64,000 bases of DNA from Dictyostelium discoideum (Eukaryota), in NCBI GenBank assembly GCA_000004695.1, contig CM000153.2, positions 3,648,001 through 3,712,000 on the forward strand. Reading direction: 5' to 3'. The position numbers and the translations under genes were made by a program. This document shows positions 1 to 64,000 of the stretch, one piece after another. The notes under the pieces are model-generated. The model had not been told where the DNA came from. It ran no database searches and saw only the letters and a list, made by a program, of their open reading frames with translations. The first letter of the stretch is position 1. Each line of letters starts with the position of its first letter.

Positions 1-7523
<7,523 letters not shown>

Positions 7524-7654
7524 AAAAAAAAATAAAAAATATAATGAAAATAAAATAAAAATAGAATGACAAAAAAAAAAAAAAAAAAAAAATTATTGAA
7601 ATAAAAAATAATTGTAAATGGTATTTTTCATTTTTTTAATTTTTTTTTTTTAAT

Positions 7655-7853
7655 TTTTTACCACACCAATGATTTAAATCTCACAAACAAGATAAACTGT
7701 TTTTTTTTTTTGGAATTTTTTTTTTTTTTTTTATTATTTTTTGTAAGTGGGGTGTGAGATTTAAATCATTGGGCTATGTTGGGGTTGAAAAAAACGGTTT
7801 TTTTGGATTATTTTCACACAAGCTGTTTTTTTTTGGTGTGGTAAAAAATTAAA
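7655..7853. promoter_or_regulatory. Nested inverted repeats with G-box/CA-rich half-sites, lying between the 3' end of the large ORF and the cadA promoter
   Basis: CCAATGATTTAAATCTCACA (7666-7685) is the reverse complement of TGTGAGATTTAAATCATTGG (7753-7772). Outer arms TTTTTTACCACACC (7655-7667) and GGTGTGGTAAAAAA (7838-7848) are also complementary. GTGGGGTGTGAG at 7747-7758 resembles the GT-rich G-box bound by Dictyostelium GBF. Confidence 0.3.
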
Positions 7854-8016
7854 AAACTTCTCATTTATGAACGACAAGGGCATGATTAATTGAAAAAAGA
7901 GTATATTTTCATTTCCCAACAGAAAATATCATTATCACACACTTAATCTAGATATTAGAAAATTTATAATTATTTGAATAATAAAAATTATTATATTAAT
8001 TTTATTATTTTAAATT

Positions 8017-8047
<31 letters not shown>

Positions 8048-8148
8048 GTTTTTATCATTAAAAAAAAAACTATAAAAAGAAATTTTTTTTGTTTTCTTTT
8101 CATTAAATAAATTTCAAAAGTAAAAGGTATAGTATTAAAAATTAAAAA

Positions 8149-8978
8149 ATGTCTGTTGATGCAAATAAAGTAAAATTCTTCTTTGGTAAAAACTGCACTG
8201 GTGAATCATTTGAATACAACAAAGGTGAAACTGTAAGATTCAACAATGGTGATAAATGGAATGATAAATTCATGTCATGTTTGGTTGGTTCAAATGTTAG
8301 ATGTAACATTTGGGAGCATAATGAAATTGGTAAGTATTTATAAATATTTTCTATTTTTATAAATTATAAATAATATTAATAGGTTTAATTTATTATTATT
8401 ATTTTAATTTTAAAATATAGATACTCCAACTCCAGGAAAATTCCAAGAATTGGCTCAAGGCAGTACAAACAATGATTTAACCTCAATAAATGGTCTTTCA
8501 AAGTTCCAAGTCTTACCAGGAGCTTTTCAATGGGCAGTTGATGTTAAAATTGTCAACAAAGTTAATTCAACTGCTGGTTCATATGAAATGACCATTACTC
8601 CATACCAAGTTGATAAGGTTGCTTGCAAAGATGGTGATGACTTTGTTCAATTGCCAATTCCAAAACTTACTCCACCAGATTCTGAAATTGTTAGCCATTT
8701 AACAGTTCGTCAAACACATACACCATATGACTATGTAAGTTTATTATTATTATTATTATGATTATTATTAAATATATAATTAATTTCTCTTTTATTAATT
8801 TTTAATTTTTATCTTTCTATAAATAAAAAAGGTTGTAAATGGAAGTGTTTACTTTAAATACTCCCCAACAACTGGCCAAGTTACAGTTATTAAAAAAGAT
8901 GAGACATTCCCAAAGAATATGACTGTTACACAAGATGATAATACATCTTTCATCTTTAACTTAAACTCTGAAAAATAA
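8149..8978 (+). CDS. cadA: Calcium-dependent cell adhesion molecule DdCAD-1 (gp24), with 3 exons: 8149..8329, 8421..8734 and 8832..8978 (213 aa).
   Basis: Exon 1 encodes [60 protein letters not shown]. The donor is GTAAGT at 8330 and the acceptor ATAG at 8417-8420. Exon 2 ends ...HTPYDY with GTAAGT at 8735. Exon 3 reads [10 protein letters not shown]...NLNSEK*. The recalled DdCAD-1 sequence matches: a beta/gamma-crystallin-like N-terminal domain plus an Ig-like C-terminal domain, total 213 aa. Confidence 0.85.
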
Positions 8979-9063
8979 AACAATATGTTTTTTTTTCTCT
9001 TTAAGAAAACTTTAAATAATAAAATTATGAATTTCAGAAATTATTTAGGTCTTATTTTTATTT

Positions 9064-9297
9064 TATTTTTTTTTTTATTTGTTTCGATATTGGCTTAATT
9101 TGTAAATAACTTCATGTACACCAACGATATGACAAATTAAAATTGGGTCATTGCGATGGTGTTAAGAGATGTTTTATAGGCTCAGGGTTTCTAATTAGAA
9201 AATAAATCAGAAGTCAATAAAATTTCTTCAACTGGATCTTGGTGAAACGAAAGTGGTCTAATTTAATTATTTTTATTTATTTTTATGGAAGCGGGAA

Positions 9298-9331
<34 letters not shown>

Positions 9332-10440
9332 ACCTCAACCAATTAGGCAGTGTCTGAGTTTTATTTAATTTTATTTTGGTAGTATTTAAAAATTCTTAAT
9401 TATTTATGTAATTAGTATTGAATGAACAATAATGAACTAAATGTTCTGGTACATAAGTTCTCATTAATTGTGAATTCCAAGAGTGACTAAATTTTTCTAG
9501 CTTTTTCATTATTTTCCAAGTGTAGTCTAAATGAGGGTCTTTATTTCCAATCTTCTTAAATGATCTATTACTTTTAAAACGAAAGTATGGCGGGTCTTGA
9601 CGGCTTCTGTTGTGCCGTACCGGGGTGTCATGTCGGCCGTTTGTGCCGTCGGATGGTTTTGAAAACTACCTCCCCAGATTCGATTATAGTATTATAATCC
9701 CTCATTTCGGAGTTTTTAATTGCGGTACTTATTGGTCTGGTTATACATGTCTGAGGAGATTTTTGCTTTAACCCATCAATATGAGCAGTGTTTATTACTT
9801 CCTACTCTTGATCTAGGTCCTCTATGTTTATTACAAGCCAACAGGATATCGAACCGTTGTCCTAGGGTGTGCGTCGGTATTTACCTATCAGTGCCCTTCA
9901 AAGCGGGAAATTTTTTTTTTTTTTGAATTGGATAACGCAATTATTGGTTGCTTCTCCTTGAGATGCTAGATCTCATTTATTTTAGTATTTTTACAGGGTC
10001 TCTAAAAGAGGGGTTAGTTTACTTTTTTTTTTTTTTTTTTTTGTTTCTAATTTTGAATTGTATTATTACTTTTGATTAAAACATCTTTTTTGTCCAAACT
10101 TTTTTCAAAAACTTTTTTTATTTTATCGTCTGGCGACAGTTTGGCGGGTCTTGAAGTTGATGGTGTGACGAATACCCAACCTCCACTCATACTATCGGTG
10201 AAACCTTAAGCCACTTTCGTGACCGACACTCGCTCTCATCTCTCGCGCCACTCACTCGCCATTCGTCTTTATATATATTTTTACTTTTATCGACTTACTT
10301 TGTGTGAGCGCGATACCCCCTGTCTCCTTCCCGTTACTTGAAGTGTCTCGCCAGTGTACCACACGTTTACTATTGCAGTGACTGACTAACCAACGGCTTG
10401 CACTATCAGGGCCAATAAGCGGGAAATATGAAGCCAAAAA
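9064..10440 (-). mobile_element. Tandem array of three related non-coding, GC-richer repeat modules immediately upstream (19-26 bp) of the tRNA-Tyr gene. Likely remnants of tRNA-targeting retroelements (TRE5-type modules or DGLT-A solo LTRs); family not assignable.
   Basis: Units at about 9076-9300, 9590-9910 and 10143-10433. Units 2 and 3 both begin TGGCGGGTCTTGA and end CTATCAG(G/T)GCC..AAGCGGGAAAT, but their interiors differ. Read on the minus strand, each unit starts ATTTCCCGCTT and is followed at its low-coordinate end by an A-run (seen as plus-strand T-runs at 9301-9328, 9911-9924 and 9064-9075). This resembles successive poly(A)-terminated insertions with 5' ends facing the tRNA. Only short ORFs are present. 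The strand assignment is tentative. Confidence 0.4.
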
Positions 10441-10458: not shown

Positions 10459-10541
10459 CCGGCTTTGGCGCAATGGTAGCGCGATTGACTGTAGTAATTA
10501 AAGTGATCAATCGGTTGCTAGTTCGAATCTGGCAAGCCGGA
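10459..10541 (+). tRNA. tRNA-Tyr (anticodon GTA) carrying an 11-nt intron after position 37
   Basis: Cloverleaf traced by hand. Acceptor CCGGCTT pairs with AAGCCGG. D-stem GCGC/GCGC with loop AATGGTA. Anticodon stem ATTGA/TCAAT. The anticodon loop CTGTAG is interrupted by TAATTAAAGTG. T-stem GCTAG/CTGGC with loop TTCGAAT. A T6 Pol III terminator lies at 10543-10548. Confidence 0.7.
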
Positions 10542-10567
10542 CTTTTTTAAAAAAATTTAAAGCCAAG

Positions 10568-10578
10568 GGTTCGATTCC
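10568..10578 (+). promoter_or_regulatory. External B-box (exB) about 27 bp downstream of tRNA-Tyr
   Basis: GGTTCGATTCC matches the B-box consensus GGTTCGANTCC. Extra downstream B boxes are a known feature of Dictyostelium tRNA genes and are implicated in TRE3 targeting. Confidence 0.45.
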
Positions 10579-10808
10579 TTGTAAAAAATGGTAGAATGAA
10601 AAAAGTCGAAACACACATGATCATGACTGTCACTTGCTGCTAAACCGTACCGCTATCAAGAGGATACAAGATACACGTGAAAAGTAATTCATCCTTTTCT
10701 ATCCTTAATCTCGGTCAATTTTAACCAATCTTTCGAAAAAAATCACCAATCCACCACGATCTACAGATCTAACTTACCAAATCGCCGATTCAAAGGAATC
10801 CCATCGAG

Positions 10809-11882
10809 ATGAATTCCTACGCAGACGCGGCTAAAATGGCCAACCCCTCCACCCATATGGACGAGGCATCGGAGAACTTCATTAAGGAATTCTCCACAAA
10901 AACAGCAGAGATAAAGGAAACTTACCCCAAACTATCAATAGGCCTCAAAGACATCTCCAAATACTGCGAGACCATATTGAACATGACTGCGCTCTCAACC
11001 TACGAGAAGAACAACGGATTCTACCCAATTACACTCGAATTCCCCAAAATGGATCTCAAGGGGTTAGAAGAAATGAGAAAAACACTCTCAAACTACGATA
11101 TCCCAATCGACAAGATATACATAGGCAAAGGAACTAGAAAAATGATCCACCTGATGATTAAAAACGAACAATCTCTCCTAAATATCATTAGAGATAGAAG
11201 CAAATTGGGAACCTTCATCACCTCCAGTAGAGACTTCCACGTCCTCACAGGAAGAGTAAGAATTCCCAGAGAAAAGGCAGGAATAGTGGACGCCCTCATC
11301 AAAACTGCCTTTGCAGAAGAAATACCCTATGCAATATACAATACTATATACTCCACCGACCACCTCATAGTATTCGGTCTAATAGAATGCAAAATAGGCG
11401 ATCAAATGAAATCTGGCCAACACATTACAGAAATCGCAAACTTTACCATCAGAACGGCCACCAAAACCTACTCCTCACAAAAGAAAAACAAGAAAGTAGA
11501 GACAAACAACACGGAGGAACCATTAGAAGATGAGATGACAGATCCTCCTAACACTCAAAACAGGATAGCAATCAAATCCTCTCAACCAAAACCACAACAA
11601 CAAACAAACAACTCAGCAAACAATCAGTCTGATAAACAATCAACACAAGAGAAAAAAGCTCAAGCAAAAAAGTCATCTCAACCTCTTCCCCCCAAAAACC
11701 CAGCAGAATTTCAATCTGTCAAACCCACCACAACCACTACCACAACATCCAACGCCATCCAAAAAGACAATGCCAACAAAACAAGCACTAACATCCATTC
11801 ATCCTCGGAAAACAGAGAGAAGACACTAAACATCCCTCCAACTATACACCGAATTTCAAAAACAAAACGACTACAACAATAA
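10809..11882 (+). CDS. TRE3 ORF1 protein (357 aa), basic with a Thr/Gln-rich C-terminus
   Basis: First long ORF of the element. Codon usage is GC-richer than host genes. It lies upstream of the RT-encoding ORF2. Confidence 0.65.
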   Translation: MNSYADAAKMANPSTHMDEASENFIKEFSTKTAEIKETYPKLSIGLKDISKYCETILNMTALSTYEKNNGFYPITLEFPKMDLKGLEEMRKTLSNYDIPIDKIYIGKGTRKMIHLMIKNEQSLLNIIRDRSKLGTFITSSRDFHVLTGRVRIPREKAGIVDALIKTAFAEEIPYAIYNTIYSTDHLIVFGLIECKIGDQMKSGQHITEIANFTIRTATKTYSSQKKNKKVETNNTEEPLEDEMTDPPNTQNRIAIKSSQPKPQQQTNNSANNQSDKQSTQEKKAQAKKSSQPLPPKNPAEFQSVKPTTTTTTTSNAIQKDNANKTSTNIHSSSENREKTLNIPPTIHRISKTKRLQQ

Positions 11883-11997
11883 GGCTAACATCAAAAATCT
11901 AATCTCCCTACTAGAGACAGAATTTAAAGACCAAGCCTTCGCAACCCTTTCAGCAATAAATGAATCTAAAAAAAGAGAAGAACAACTTAAACAAGAA

Positions 11998-14987
11998 TTG
12001 AACAACTATTGCGAAGAAACCTCACTCAAGTACATCTCCGCGAGAATCAAGAAAAGACACAATGATTTCACCATCAACGCAGTAAAAGATGCACAAGGTA
12101 GAACAATTAACAAACAGGAATTGATCGAAGAAGAATACGTAAAATATTACTCAAATCTTTATGACTACAAAGAAGATGACCCACTATCTCATTACGAAAT
12201 GTTGGAAAATTGGACAGTGACCAGGGACTCGACATGGGACAACCTTGAAAATGAATTCACCTCACAAGAAATCCTAGAAGTAATAAAACAACTGAACCCA
12301 CACAAATCTCCAGGTCCAGATGGAATTCCAAACTTATTCTACATAACACACAAAGAAAAACTAGCTCCAATACTGGCCTCAGCATTCAACGACACTCTAA
12401 GAAATCCTCATCTAATTAGCAAAAATTACAAAGAAGGCCTCATTATCACGATACCTAAAAAGGGAGACCCCGAACTAATCAAAAACAGAAGACCAATTAC
12501 ACTGGCTAACTGTATATATAAAATCCACTCAAAGCTAATAAACAATAGAATAATCCCAATACTAACGAAAGTGATCAACAACAATCAAAAAGGTTTCGTA
12601 CCAGGCAGATTCATTATAGATAATATCATATCAATGAACGAATTAATCAACTATTGTAATGATAAAAGAATTAACGGAATAATTACACTATATATTTCGA
12701 AAAAGCTTNNNNNNNNNNNNNNNNNNNNNNNNNNNNNNNNNNNNNNNNNNNNNNNNNNNNNNNNNNNNNNNNNNNNNNNNNNNNNNNNNNNNNNNNNNNN
12801 NNNNNNNNCTCATCTAATTAGCAAAAATACAAAGAAGGCCTCATTATCACGATACCTAAAAAGGGAGACCCCGAACTAATCAAAAACAGAAGACCAATTA
12901 CACTGGCTAACTGTATATATAAAATCCACTCAAAGCTAATAAACAATAGAATAATCCCAATACTAACGAAAGTGATCAACAACAATCAAAAAGGTTTCGT
13001 ACCAGGCAGATTCATTATAGATAATATCATATCAATGAACGAATTAATCAACTATTGTAATGATAAAAGAATTAACGGAATAATTACACTATATGATTTC
13101 GAAAAAGCTTTTGACTCGATCTCACACGGTTCAATACTTAGATCACTACAACACATCAACATTCCAACCAATATAATCAACCTGATAATGAATCTACTCA
13201 CCAAATCTGAAGCAAGAATTGAAATTAATGGTAGAACTACTATACCCTTTGAGATCAAAAGAGGAGTTAAACAAGGAGATCCACTATCACCCACACTGTT
13301 CGTCCTTGTAATAGAGGCTTTAGCTAGAAAAATTTTACAAGATGATCGAATTACTGGCCTTCCTCTAAACAACAGCAACCACAGAGAGAAATTCCAAAGC
13401 TTTGCAGACGACTCGGCTTCAATGGTCCCAGACTCTCAACAACTTGAATTAGTACTACAACACTTCAATTCATTTTGCAAAGCCACTTCCTCAAAACTAA
13501 ACATCGACAAATCTTCATCAATTCTTATAGGCAACCCAGACAATACCAACCAAAGAATTCCAATATCTACAAATCCAGAAAGATACTTGGGATACTTCTT
13601 CACAGGTAAAGGGATAACAAGAAAAATGCCAGAAATATTAAACACAATAAGATCATCCTTAGTACTATGGAAAACCACTGACTCAACAATAAAAACCAAA
13701 ACCAACATCCTCAAAGCATTCGCACTCTCTAAATTAACCTACTATTCATATGTAGAGAACTTTAAGGAAGAGGAATTAAACCAAATCAATAAATTAGTCG
13801 AATGGTTTTTATCGGCACCAAACAACAAAAATGCTAGTGGATTTCAAGTTATTAATTTAATGAGAACCAAAAGAGCAAGATACCCACTAAAAGTAGGGGG
13901 CTGGAACATTTGGAATATAGAATTGAGACAACTGGCGCAGAAACTTTGGATCATAAACCAGTTCATACTAGCACTAGAAACCAAACAAACAAACTCATCT
14001 CATCACAAAAGCTGGGAATATCAGATCCAAAAAAACAAATTCACATCCAGATACCTAAAAGAAAACTTAGACGAATGGAACAAAATAAGAATAAAAAAAG
14101 CAATCTTCAACAATAATCTCACATCCATAAAAAACGAAAATGGACAACCACTTTCACTGGCAGAATGGTATACCACAATTCAAGACCAAAATCCAACCAT
14201 CCCTAAAACTGAATTCCAATCATCTCTAAACTTAAGAGGCTACAGCTATAATCAACTCTTCAACAACATACTGAAGATAAAAGACCCTAAAACAAGAGAC
14301 ACAATGTTTAGATTCCATGCCAGATGTCTTCCAATAAACTACCTTCACAACAAACAATGCCCACTCTGCAAAGAAGATATGAGCAAAGACCCATACGGTC
14401 ACCTGTTCTTCTCATGCAAGAAAACAAAACAATTCATAAAAATAAATAAACTCAAAAATTTCATCTATATTACCACAGGCAAAGGTAAAAACTGGCACCA
14501 TACAAGAATTAGGCAAAATAACAATTTCATTAATAGAATAACTCCAAAATTATCACCGACATCCAAAAAAGATCAAGAAGTGAATGCAGATTACGCCAAC
14601 CACAGATCCCACAAAGAATACTTTGAATGGAACTATAAAGCAATAGACTATGATCTAACCAGATCATTCGCATATAGAAACCTAATGGCCCTTATCCTCC
14701 ACAACATTTGGATTTGGATTTGCAATCAAATATACAGTGAAGATCCTTTAACAGATGAATCACTATCATACAGCTCCCTTCTAAAGAAATGGCACAAATT
14801 GGCCACTCTAGAATACATCAAAAAAGCAAAAGATCTGAAAAACTTATCAGCAAAAGACCATAATAACTTCAAAGATCCTAAGATCCTTCTCACTTCAACG
14901 ATCAAGCTAAGAAAAACAACAGCTAATTACTATTGTATTCCAGAATCATCTCTCCCAAATATTATATCTTTTGATCAATTCATATGA
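11998..14987 (+). CDS. TRE3 ORF2 polyprotein (endonuclease/reverse transcriptase/Cys-rich C-terminal domain), interrupted by the 100-N gap and a flanking duplication
   Basis: ORF track pieces 11998..12879 and 12972..14987 share one reading frame logic. RT motifs and a CCHC-like motif are near the C-terminus. Sequence 12407..12708 is repeated at 12809..13110 with 2 small indels, flanking the N-run. Confidence 0.65.
12407..13110. other. Scaffold gap (100 N, 12709..12808) flanked by an approximately 300-bp near-identical direct duplication, a probable assembly artefact
   Basis: catctaattagcaaaaattacaaagaaggcctc...aattacactatat occurs on both sides of the N-run. The copies differ by 1-nt indels (aaaattacaaag vs aaaatacaaag; ctatatatttcg vs ctatatgatttcg). 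Confidence 0.6.
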
Positions 14988-15112
14988 TTAAAATAACCCT
15001 TCAGCTTAAATGATAAGCCTTTAAATAAATATTAAATAAAACTCGTATTAACACAGATGGACATATATCAATCTTGTTAATCCAATATTAAAAAAAAAAA
15101 AAAAAAAAAAAA

Positions 15113-15552
15113 CTTGCTGCTCAGGTTTAAAGAGTGATTTTTTCTGGGTAGTCAATCTTGTTAATATTAAAAAAAAAAAAAAAAAAAAAAAAATTCTGGG
15201 TATCAGGTAATGCAAATCCATGTCCATCAGGATGGTCAGTGGAATACCCAGTCAGAACTGCATCAATCACAAATAATCGATTAACTTGGTACTGGTGTGC
15301 AGATATATTCGATGTTGGTGGCATGTTGAGCAAAATACATTCTCATCAGTTCTAAATTGTGGTTATCAAGCCTATATTATTGGTACAATCACACCTTCAC
15401 AACAACCAATAGATATTTGGTTAATTCATTTTGTTCAAATGATGGTTCTATGGTTAGATCAAATACTAAACCAATAACATCTGATGCTACTAAAAATTTA
15501 TGTGCAAAAGGGAAAATAACAATCACCAATTCAAATATTGATACCTCTTGAT
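15113..15552 (+). pseudogene. Decayed fragment of the Cys-rich N-terminal domain (exon 1) of the EGF-repeat gene at 23667..24240. It has frameshifts and no start or signal peptide.
   Basis: Nucleotide and protein similarity to 23700-24150 (minus) and 52150-52540. The shared motif is ...SGNANPCPSGWSVEYPVRTASITNNRLTWYWCADI.... The reading frame is broken into three overlapping short ORFs (15158..15355, 15286..15477, 15357..15551). Confidence 0.6.
15151..15193 (+). mobile_element. Extremely 5'-truncated TRE3 insertion consisting of the last 18 nt of the element 3' UTR plus about A25, flanked by a 9-bp TSD
   Basis: GTCAATCTTGTTAATATT + A25 matches the terminus of the large element (ATCAATCTTGTTAATCCAATATT + An at 15067-15111). 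It is flanked by TTCTGGGTA at 15142-15150 and 15194-15202. The paralogous uninterrupted sequence at 52190 reads TTCTGGGCATCAGG. Confidence 0.6.
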
Positions 15553-23505: not shown

Positions 23506-24240
23506 GTTAGGAAAAGTGAAAAAAAAGTAGAGGGCAGGAAAAGTTGAAAAAAAAGTTGAGGGAAGGAAGAGTTTAAAAAAAAAAAGTTGAGAGAAGGAAA
23601 AGTTGAAAAATAGAAAAAAAAAAGAATTGAAACAAAATAAAAAATAAAAGAAAATATAATACAAACCTGTGCATGAAGGAGCTGTTCCTGTATAACCGCT
23701 TGGACAAACTGCTGAATAAATTTCTAGGTACCTAACATCTGTGATTGTTCCTTTTCCTTTTGTACATAAATTTTTAGTAGCATCAGATGTTATTGGTTTA
23801 GAATTTGATTCAACCATATCACCTTGATTTGAACAAAATGAAACAACCAAATATCTATTGGTTGTTGAGAAGGTGATTGTACCAATTGTATAGGCTTGAT
23901 AACCACCACAATTTAGCACTGATGAGAAAAGAACTTCTGTAGTGAAGCCTCCAACATCTAAAATGTCTACACACCAATACCAAGTTAATTGATTATTTGT
24001 AATTGGTGCAGTTCTGACTGGGTATTCCACTGACCATCCGGATGGACATGGATTTGCAGAACCTGATAACCAGTAAAAATCACTCTTTGAACCTGATCTA
24101 CAAGTGGCTGTAGTAATTTGAGTTATAACTTGTTTAACACATGCTCCATTAGCTAATGTTGTTCCTGCTGGACATGTTTGACAAAATACTCTCCCCAAAA
24201 AAATTAATAAAAATATAAAATTTAAAAATAATGACTTCAT
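18930..24240 (-). CDS. Large type-I membrane protein with signal peptide, a Cys-rich N-terminal domain, about 26 tandem calcium-binding EGF-like repeats, an extracellular beta-rich region and a single C-terminal TM helix. Two exons: 23667..24240 and 18930..23431 (about 1691 aa).
   Basis: Exon 1 starts MKSLFLNFIFLLIFLGRVFC... and ends ...GTAPSCT. The donor is G|GTTTGTATTA (minus strand about 23666) and the acceptor TTAATTTAG|ATATAAATGAATG (about 23432). The junction regenerates the reiterated CTDINEC motif. cbEGF repeats read D(I/K)NEC..NNGGC.Q.C.N..GSF.C.C. The C-terminus reads ...GVSIGGAAAVAIAGIGAFVFRDRKKKK. Confidence 0.8.
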
Positions 24241-52039: not shown

Positions 52040-52690
52040 GTTCTGGATATACTTGTGCTTTTTGTGAAATTCTTTCACCTGGTCGTCATGCTAGTCATTT
52101 TGGTGTTTGTAGAAGAATTCAATGTTTTGTGGGTTTTGATGTTCAGTTCACCAAAATCAGGCTCTGGATCAGGTTTAAAGAGTGATTTTTTCTGGGCATC
52201 AGGTAATGCAAATCCATGTCCATCCGGATGGTCAGTGGAATACCCAGTTAGAACTGCATCAATTAAAAATAATCAATTAACTTGGTACTGGTGTGCAGAT
52301 ATATTGGATGTTGGTGGCTTGATGAGCAATATACATTTCTCATCAGTGCTAAATTGTGGTGGTTATCAAGCCTATATTATTGGTACAATCACCTTCTCAA
52401 CAACCAATAGATATTTGGTTAATTCATTTTGTTCAAATGAAGGTGATATGGTTGAATCAAATTCTAAACCAATAACATCTGATTCTACTAAATATCTATG
52501 TTCAAAAGGAAAAGGAACAATCAATCACAGATGTTAGGTACCTAGAAAATGGTTATACAGTAACAGCTCCTTCATGTACAGGTTTGTATTAGTGTAAGAT
52601 ACATTTCTCATCAGTTCTTAACCGTGGTGGTTACAGAGCCTATTCGAAGGTTTTAAAGATGATCTACTAAAATGAATATCAACAATCTAT
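52040..52690 (+). pseudogene. Second decayed copy of exon 1 (Cys-rich N-domain) of the EGF-repeat gene. It includes the relic of the exon-1 donor site and a partial tandem re-duplication.
   Basis: 52150-52540 is collinear with the intact exon (…SGNANPCPSGWSVEYPVRTASIKNNQLTWYWCADILDVGG…NCGGYQAYIIGTITFSTTNRYLV…). 52540-52585 retains …CTGgtttgtatta with a deletion. 52590-52680 repeats the …ISSVLNRGGYRAY… segment. Frameshift between 51985..52185 and 52007..52537 frames. No signal peptide and no downstream EGF exon. Confidence 0.55.
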
Positions 52691-62356: not shown

Positions 62357-62446
62357 GCCCGTGTCGTATAGTGGTTATTATATCTGTCTTGTACTTAGTA
62401 CCAAAGCGATAACAGAGGGTCCTCAGTTCGATTCTGAGCTCGGGCA
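62357..62446 (+). tRNA. Intron-containing tRNA gene. The hand fold gives anticodon TGT (Thr) with a 17-nt intron after position 37. An external B-box-like GGTTCGAAGTC lies at 62477-62487.
   Basis: Acceptor GCCCGTG/CTCGGGC (one U-U mismatch at 6:67). D-loop AGTGGTTA. Anticodon stem TCTGT/ACAGA. Loop CTTGTA[intron CTTAGTACCAAAGCGAT]A. T-stem CTCAG/CTGAG with loop TTCGATT. Isotype is less certain than for the first tRNA. Confidence 0.55.
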
Positions 62447-62565
62447 CTTTTCCTCGCAGACAGAATTTCGGTCACAGGTTCGAAGTCTGTCTTCAAATAG
62501 TAAAACTATTAATTATTGTATATTCCCTTTAAAGGAACAATGATTAATCAAAGTTTATCCTTTAA

Positions 62566-64000
62566 ACGAATTAATCAACTATTGTAATGATAAAAGAATT
62601 AACGGAATAATTACACTATATGATTTCGAAAAAGCTTTTGACTCGATCTCACACGGTTCAATACTTAGATCACTACAACACATCAACATTCCAACCAATA
62701 TAATCAACCTGATAATGAATCTACTCACCAAATCTGAAGCAAGAATTGAAATTAATGGTAGAACTACTATACCCTTTGAGATCAAAAGAGGAGTTAAACA
62801 AGGAGATCCACTATCACCCACACTGTTCGTCCTTGTAATAGAGGCTTTAGCTAGAAAAATTTTACAAGATGATCGAATTACTGGCCTTCCTCTAAACAAC
62901 AGCAACCACAGAGAGAAATTCCAAAGCTTTGCAGACGACTCGGCTTCAATGGTCCCAGACTCTCAACAACTTGAATTAGTACTACAACACTTCAATTCAT
63001 TTTGCAAAGCCACTTCCTCAAAACTTAACATCGACAAATCTTCATCAATTCTTATAGGCAACCCAGACAATACCAACCAAAGAATTCCAATATCTACAAA
63101 TCCAGAAAGATACTTGGGATACTTCTTCACAGGTAAAGGGATAACAAGAAAAATGCCAGAAATATTAAACACAATAAGATCATCCTTAGTACTATGGAAA
63201 ACCACTGACTCAACAATAAAAACCAAAACCAACATCCTCAAAGCATTCGCACTNNNNNNNNNNNNNNNNNNNNNNNNNNNNNNNNNNNNNNNNNNNNNNN
63301 NNNNNNNNNNNNNNNNNNNNNNNNNNNNNNNNNNNNNNNNNNNNNNNNNNNNNCAAAGAAGATATGAGCAAAGACCCATACTTCTCATGCAAGAAAACAA
63401 AACAATTCATAAAAATAAATAAACTCAAAAATTTCATCTATATTACCACAGGCAAAGGTAAAAACTGGCACCATACAAGAATTAGGCAAAATAACAATTT
63501 CATTAATAGAATAACTCCAAAATTATCACCGACAGCCAAAAAAGATCAAGAAGTGAATGCAGATTACGCCAACCACAGATTCCACAAAGAATACTTTGAA
63601 TGGAACTATAAAGCAATAGACTATGATCTAACCAGATCATTCGCATATAGAAACCTAATGGCCCTTATCCTCCACAACATTTGGATTTGGATTTGCAATC
63701 AAATATACAGTGAAGATCCTTTAACAAATGAATCACTACCATACAGCTCCCTTCTAAAGAAATGGCACAAATTGGCCACTCTAGAATACATCAAAAAAGC
63801 AAAAGATCTGAAAAACTTATCAGCAAAAGACCATAATAATTTCAAAGATCCTAAGATCCTTCTCACCTCAACGACCAAGCTAAGAAAAACAACAGCTAAT
63901 TACTATTGTATTCCAGAATCATCTCTCCCAAATATTATATCTTTTGATCAATTCATATGATTAAAATAACCCTTCAGCTTAAATGATAAGCCTATAAATA
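62566..64000 (+). mobile_element. 5'-truncated TRE3-type retrotransposon copy (the 3' part of ORF2 onward), inserted about 108 bp downstream of the second tRNA in the same orientation. It runs off the window end and contains a 100-N gap at 63254..63353.
   Basis: 62566-64000 is at least 97% identical to 13040-15030 of the first element. Homology starts abruptly at AATTAATCAACTATTG. The 100-N gap replaces about 650 bp. A 12-bp deletion (ggtcacctgttc) lies relative to copy 1 near 63380. The poly(A) end is not in the window. Confidence 0.8.
62567..63960 (+). CDS. TRE3 ORF2 3' portion (the RT C-terminal and Cys-rich domain), gapped and partial
   Basis: ORF-track pieces 62715..63422 and 63364..63960 are collinear with 13191..14987. 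Confidence 0.6.

Follow-up and report, generated by a model that had tools for sequence, protein, structure and literature searches.

A 43-nt insertion in a pseudogene of Dictyostelium discoideum (strain AX4) is very probably the product of an independent, endonuclease-dependent target-primed reverse transcription (TPRT) event of a TRE3-A-type retrotransposon, 5'-truncated to the extreme after about 17 nt. It lies in a 64-kb stretch of DNA, referred to here as the window, where a much larger element of the same family occurs next to it. An initial annotation of the window had described a micro-insertion composed of a TRE3 tail and a poly(A) with a 9-bp target site duplication (TSD) inside a pseudogene. 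This description was borne out by the sequence itself, by seven tails of the family and by the TSDs of all four scorable family copies. Likewise, the nearly maximal 5' truncation that it proposed agrees with our results, since 17 nt were kept of an element of about 5.2 kb belonging to the family of the neighbouring copy. The direct observations comprise the tail identity, the poly(A), the TSD, the empty sites in paralogues, the family-typical duplication length of 9 bp and, in coordinates without the large element, where the insert lies and which way it points with respect to a tRNA gene.

Anatomy of the insertion

The micro-insertion and its flanks are composed of the following features.

15142 to 15150, plus strand: 5' copy of the micro-insertion TSD, TTCTGGGTA (sequence and 9-mer count)
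15151, plus strand: extra G at the 5' junction, matched by no family copy
15152 to 15168, plus strand: 17 nt corresponding to the TRE3-A-type 3' terminus save for a 5-nt CCAAT deletion (tail comparison)
15169 to 15193, plus strand: pure poly(A), A25 (sequence and second assembly)
15194 to 15202, plus strand: 3' copy of the micro-insertion TSD, TTCTGGGTA (sequence and 9-mer count)

As read from the sequence, the 43-nt insert (15151-15193) consists of G, TCAATCTTGTTAATATT and A25, with exact 9-bp repeats on either side (15142-15150 and 15194-15202), and the whole site displays the order GATTTT, TTCTGGGTA, G, TCAATCTTGTTAATATT, A25, TTCTGGGTA, TCAGGTAATGC. The nine base pairs of the duplication are unambiguous, the preceding base being a T. 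The tail had been given as 18 nt long; 17 of these match the family, while the leading G does not, this position being occupied by A in the D. discoideum copies and by C in the D. citrinum ones. No convincing microhomology was found at the 5' junction of the insert because this G intervenes, and the G itself is probably an untemplated nucleotide or a substitution. As expected for such a length, ORFs and ORF2 domains (APE, RT, zinc finger) were absent from the 17-nt remnant. The same insert, A25 included, was present in a second, independent assembly of this locus (L008, GCA_054883475.1), which is collinear and 99.85% identical; an assembly error is thereby excluded.

Within the window, the 9-mer TTCTGGGTA occurred only twice, at both flanks of the insert, with 0.25 occurrences expected; it was present at least twice, anywhere in the window, in 3 of 100 shuffles. 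The 14-mer TCAATCTTGTTAAT also displayed two occurrences, one in the micro-insertion and the other in the tail of the large element (15068-15081), and was found in none of the 100 shuffles. Pure A or T runs of at least 18 nt were so frequent (40 in 64 kb) that the poly(A) alone is uninformative; the evidential weight lies in the tail match together with the flanking repeat. The abundance of such runs is the one point in favour of a chance poly(A) microsatellite expansion accompanied by fortuitous 9-mers and unrelated to TRE3. The probability of this explanation is practically nil, as it would have to account for a 14-mer tail match never seen in shuffles, for a 9-mer restricted to the two flanks and for three homologues devoid of all 52 extra nucleotides (see below).

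The neighbouring element and its family

The large element and its TSD are delimited as follows.

10633 to 10641, plus strand: 5' copy of the large-element TSD, CTTGCTGCT (sequence and junction survey)
10642 to 15112, plus strand: large TRE3-A-type non-LTR retrotransposon (ORF2 identity, Pfam RVT_1, comparison with L001 and L008)
15113 to 15121, plus strand: 3' copy of the large-element TSD, CTTGCTGCT (sequence and junction survey)

This element starts with AAACCGTACCGC and its tail reads ...TCAATCTTGTTAATCCAATATT, followed by A23 (15090-15112). Its ORF2 displayed 99-100% identity to D. discoideum RT proteins, the ORF at 12972-14984 being 100% identical to DDB_G0285835 (strain AX4), and an RT domain was recognized by Pfam (RVT_1, E = 2e-24). 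A gap of 100 N (12709-12808) was bounded by a 303-bp duplicate (12407-12708 = 12809-13110, 99.3% identical). Both gap and duplicate are an assembly artefact, since assembly L008 is continuous here, and the true length of the element, once the artefact is removed, is 4070 bp. Compared to a full-length copy, 1175 bp were missing (positions 1209-2383 of the latter, covering the 3' end of ORF1 and the 5' end of ORF2), and the element is therefore non-autonomous.

At the protein level, the ORF2 of the large element belonged to a cluster of 79 members from D. discoideum and D. citrinum, the largest of the ORF2 clusters, and a full-length family copy in L001 measured about 5.23-5.26 kb. The TRE3-A consensus is 5229 bp long and this subfamily is the most abundant of TRE3 (PMC5006619 Table 1). 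The family was provisionally named TRE3-A-type, an assignment by full-length size and abundance only, because the length found in L001 fits the consensus and the ORF2 cluster is the largest one.

The comparison of family tails involved seven independent copies, namely the large element of the window, two copies in L001 and four in D. citrinum (L004-L007), all ending in ...TCAATCTTGTTAATCCAATATT(T)-poly(A). The micro-insertion was identical to them over 14/14 plus 3/3 nucleotides, interrupted by a single 5-nt gap (CCAAT) located between two AAT direct repeats. No match was obtained with the tails of two related families displaying 43% and 54% ORF2 identity, which end in ...TTTATTTATATC-An (L002) and ...AATTTAAACTGG-An (L013), respectively; a further related family (L003, 65% identity) was represented by a 3'-truncated copy and contributed no tail. 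The micro-insertion had been said to lack the CCA of the neighbouring tail, but comparison with TCAATCTTGTTAATCCAATATT shows that the difference amounts to five nucleotides, CCAAT. None of the seven other family tails, a small sample, carried this deletion. It may reflect a variant source copy or, equally well, a slip from one AAT repeat to the other, either in the course of reverse transcription or in a later round of replication, and the different source copy originally put forward is therefore possible, though unproven.

TSDs of 9 bp were present in all four scorable copies of the family (CTTGCTGCT and TTCTGGGTA in the window, TAATGCATA in L001 and GATCTTATA in L006). As 9 bp is the family-typical length, the micro-insertion appears to have been made by the same staggered cleavage geometry, and this shared length favours endonuclease-dependent TPRT over capture during break repair. 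As is known from L1 biology, breaks can take up very short pieces of retroelements, and a fragment of TRE3 cDNA or RNA might have been joined in this way, independently of the endonuclease, to a chance double-strand break. Such insertions, however, typically lack TSDs and are often 3'-truncated, whereas the one studied here has its 3' end complete, carries a long poly(A) and is flanked by an exact duplication of family length, so that capture at a break is extremely improbable.

A tandem duplication of the neighbour's tail was considered and rejected, as the second poly(A) is followed by a repeat of the 9 nt preceding the insert and not by the sequence found after the first poly(A).

The start of full-length TRE3-A-type copies often adjoins another TRE3-like tail and poly(A) or lies no more than about 45 bp beyond it, so that head-to-tail arrays are formed (L005 1-58, L007 1-58 and L001 946-1062). 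The upstream tails were variant in L005 (CTTGTTAAGCTAATATTT) and L007 (TTAAGTTAATCTAATATT); these could be short stubs and are situated at locus edges. A scan for further stubs, carried out on 228 kb of Dictyostelium sequence with 285 A-runs, revealed no second clear one, and a single ambiguous tail at the edge of L007.

The 3' UTR hairpin and the truncation point

The end of the TRE3-A-type 3' UTR is predicted to form a hairpin, AUUAACA.AGAU...AUCU-UGUUAAU, located 8 nt before the poly(A) (15047-15081 in the window, 5241-5273 in L004), with modest z values of -1.8 to -2.6. Its arms were identical in D. citrinum and hence provide no covariation signal to assess. The stub holds only the 3' arm of this hairpin and, with its 17 nt, has no fold of its own. 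Its truncation point coincides with the boundary between the loop and the 3' arm of the predicted structure, which is a curiosity rather than evidence.

The stub had also been taken to show the minimal 3' recognition region of the element. This does not follow, because the length of an integrated cDNA marks the point where synthesis or joining stopped and not the part of the RNA that was bound; moreover, the stub comprises just one hairpin arm. A broader extrapolation, which we regard as unlikely, would be that TRE3 stubs downstream of many Dictyostelium tRNA genes form a hidden class of abortive integration footprints missed by homology-based annotation, the loop boundary possibly marking a point of RT stalling or hand-over on a recognition structure. 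If this were true, a genome-wide catalogue of stubs would map the recognition structure and record past integration activity.

The host pseudogene and its homologues

The pieces of the pseudogene and its uninterrupted paralogues are found at the following positions.

10596 to 10641, plus strand: pseudogene 5' piece (MKKVETHMIMTVTCC...), upstream of the large element (alignment with paralogues and the L011 gene, translation)
15113 to 15150, plus strand: pseudogene middle piece of 38 bp between the two insertions (28/28 identity with paralogue positions 52169-52196, alignments)
15194 to 15552, plus strand: pseudogene 3' piece (alignments, translation; homology to the paralogues stops near 15526)
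52169 to 52523, plus strand: uninterrupted paralogue with the empty site TTCTGGGCA
23741 to 24073, minus strand: second uninterrupted paralogue with the single-copy site TTACTGGTTA

The gene fragment that received both insertions, at points 38 bp apart, derives from a secreted-protein gene family and is a genuine pseudogene: its frame is broken by deletions of 1 and 3 nt and an insertion of 2 nt, and both of its ends are truncated. It had been reported to abut the poly(A) of the large element. It does adjoin this poly(A), but it also continues on the upstream side (10596-10641) and is thus not merely abutting, the large element having itself been inserted into the pseudogene with CTTGCTGCT as its 9-bp TSD.

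The initial annotation correctly pointed to an uninterrupted paralogue at 52190, in which the target site TTCTGGGCA occurred once (52190-52198). Two more homologues agreed with it, namely the second paralogue of the window and an intact gene in the D. cf. discoideum assembly L011, where the site was also present once (TTTTGGGGA). Compared to these three homologues, the AX4 pseudogene displayed 52 additional nucleotides, corresponding exactly to the 43-nt insert plus the 9-nt duplication.

The orthologous locus was taken from four further assemblies (L009 to L012) by means of the neighbouring FNIP-repeat gene. No orthologous empty site was found among these four, and the empty-site evidence consists of the paralogues and homologues described above. 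In L009 and L010 (other D. discoideum strains) and in L012 (D. cf. discoideum), both TRE3 insertions were absent, and so was the target segment, together with the retroelement fragments located upstream of the tRNA gene in the window (see below). In these three assemblies, the tRNA and about 47 bp run directly into more distal portions of the pseudogene or into the flanking sequence beyond it. L011 (D. cf. discoideum) displayed a different arrangement with an intact gene of 1771 aa, coding for EGF repeats, downstream of the tRNA. The structural differences downstream of the orthologous tRNA were located at 9590-9620 (L009), 9225-9260 (L010), 9620-9700 (L012) and 2854-9100 (L011); three of the assemblies represented different pseudogene deletions, with a short AAATATT filler at the L010 junction. 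The region downstream of the tRNA is clearly deletion-prone across strains.

This instability, as well as the internal deletions known in the family (see the 1175 bp missing from the neighbour), could be invoked for a longer TRE3 copy that was inserted and later mostly deleted down to 17 nt and the poly(A). Such a scenario is highly improbable: a breakpoint would be needed exactly at the junction between element and target, with the upstream TSD left intact save for one G, a demand that makes it much less economical than 5' truncation, the rule in this family (54 of 67 TRE3-A copies fall short of full length; PMC5006619).

Targeting and order of the insertions

Two landmarks for TRE3 integration were recognized upstream of the pseudogene.

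10459 to 10542, plus strand: tRNA gene with intron, presumed targeting landmark (ARAGORN; Rfam RF00005, 57.8 bits)
10568 to 10578, plus strand: external B-box-like motif GGTTCGATTCC, past the tRNA terminator and conserved in other strains

The tRNA gene was called Thr-TGT by ARAGORN in bacterial mode. By eye, its anticodon arm (ATTGA-CT-GTA-G[intron]A-TCAAT) corresponds to a eukaryotic tRNA-Tyr(GUA) with an intron. Its internal B box, AGTTCGAATCT, is located at 10520-10530, and the motif further downstream resembles the external B box (ex-B) as previously conceived (PMC5911963). [quoted passage not shown]

Counted downstream, the distance from the tRNA 3' end to the start of the large element is 99 bp, that from the internal B box 111 bp, and the element has the orientation of the tRNA. 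The micro-insertion displays the same orientation, and its site is 128 bp from the tRNA 3' end and 92 bp from the external B box in pre-insertion coordinates, i.e. after subtracting the large element along with one of its two TSD copies; its present distance to the tRNA gene is about 4.6 kb, the value of 128 bp applying only with the large element removed. Both sites thus fall within the published TRE3 range, that of the micro-insertion only if it is older than the large element. Since the stub is inside the targeting range only when the 4-kb element is taken away, it was probably inserted first. The tandem copies in L001, L005 and L007 suggest that new TRE3 arrivals near a tRNA gene displace older ones outward. 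Among the strains compared, none carried one of the two insertions without the other.

These observations, together with the standard TPRT model, suggest the following course of events. The ribonucleoprotein (RNP) of the element would have been guided to a position some 100 bp beyond a B box belonging to the tRNA gene (10459-10542), where the ORF2 endonuclease would nick the bottom strand, and the freed 3'-OH would prime reverse transcription on the poly(A) of a TRE3-A RNA. Synthesis, or joining of the 5' end, would then stop after about 17 nt of the 3' UTR, leaving one extra G at the junction, and a second nick in the top strand, 9 bp away, would give rise to the TTCTGGGTA duplication.

Both insertions might also derive from one compound event, in which a single RNP (or a burst) aborted at the distal site and re-initiated 29 bp upstream to produce the large element. 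The two inserts are indeed only 38 bp apart and share orientation, family, a TSD length of 9 bp and pure poly(A) tails (A25 and A23). [quoted passage not shown] A compound origin is therefore very unlikely and two independent insertions are preferred here.

Upstream of the tRNA gene, positions 9289-10429 contained two unrelated, minus-oriented fragments ending in poly(A): the first with T28 at 9301-9328 and a body at 9329-9900, the second with T15 at 9912-9926 and a body at 9927-10416. The motif AAGCGGGAAAT, found three times (9289, 9901 and 10417), separates and flanks them. They resemble two retroelement insertions into one and the same site of TRE5 type, some 42 bp 5' of the tRNA, and both were absent from strains L009 and L010. 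A second tRNA gene with its own external B-box-like motif was found at 62357-62447 (plus strand). A 5'-truncated TRE3-A-type copy starts 118 bp downstream of it, at 62565, which corresponds to position 3182 of the full-length element; this copy is broken by an N gap (63254-63353) and leaves the window (64000) before its tail.

Implications and comparison with known elements

The micro-insertion indicates that TRE3-A integration can abort at less than 20 nt and nevertheless be resolved with a normal 9-bp TSD. It also illustrates how a single tRNA gene can gather several insertions, here two TRE3 elements on its downstream side and, on its upstream side, two fragments with a poly(A) end. As stubs of this kind escape standard repeat masking, comparisons between paralogues or strains may misread them as microsatellites or indels. 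The significance of the finding lies mainly in annotation; it neither defines the recognition element nor opens a new question. The stub is remarkably short, but its family and the mechanism behind it are known and the genome has been studied well, so that it belongs to what is already known.

The closest known system is TRE3-A of D. discoideum, an L1-like non-LTR element with the same 3' terminus, poly(A), 9-bp TSD and orientation. The position, about 100-130 bp downstream of a tRNA gene, would be shared as well if the stub preceded the large element. Full-length TRE3-A copies are a minority (13 of 67) and 5' truncation is usual (PMC5006619). The stub stands out from these copies by the extent of its truncation (17 nt of about 5.2 kb) and by a CCAAT deletion unseen in seven other copies; unlike the usual copies, it is far below the reach of repeat annotation based on BLAST or TBLASTX.

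Severe 5' truncations by TPRT are likewise encountered in human LINE-1, where poly(A) and TSD are retained and nearly all 5' sequence is lost. 5' truncation affects the majority of de novo L1 events, one extreme case containing no L1 sequence at all (PMC3514663). L1 does not target tRNA genes, produces TSDs of variable length and displays a TTTT/AA nick preference, whereas the nick sites of the stub show no such consensus and its TSD has the fixed length of 9 bp.

TRE5-A, a sister family in the same genome, also gives rise to 5'-truncated insertions near tRNA genes, and 5' deletion is typical of its de novo events (PMC3159450). TRE5 elements, however, insert about 50 bp upstream of tRNA genes and in the opposite orientation, and their truncated events are often accompanied by target-site deletions, in contrast to the clean TSD that flanks the stub.
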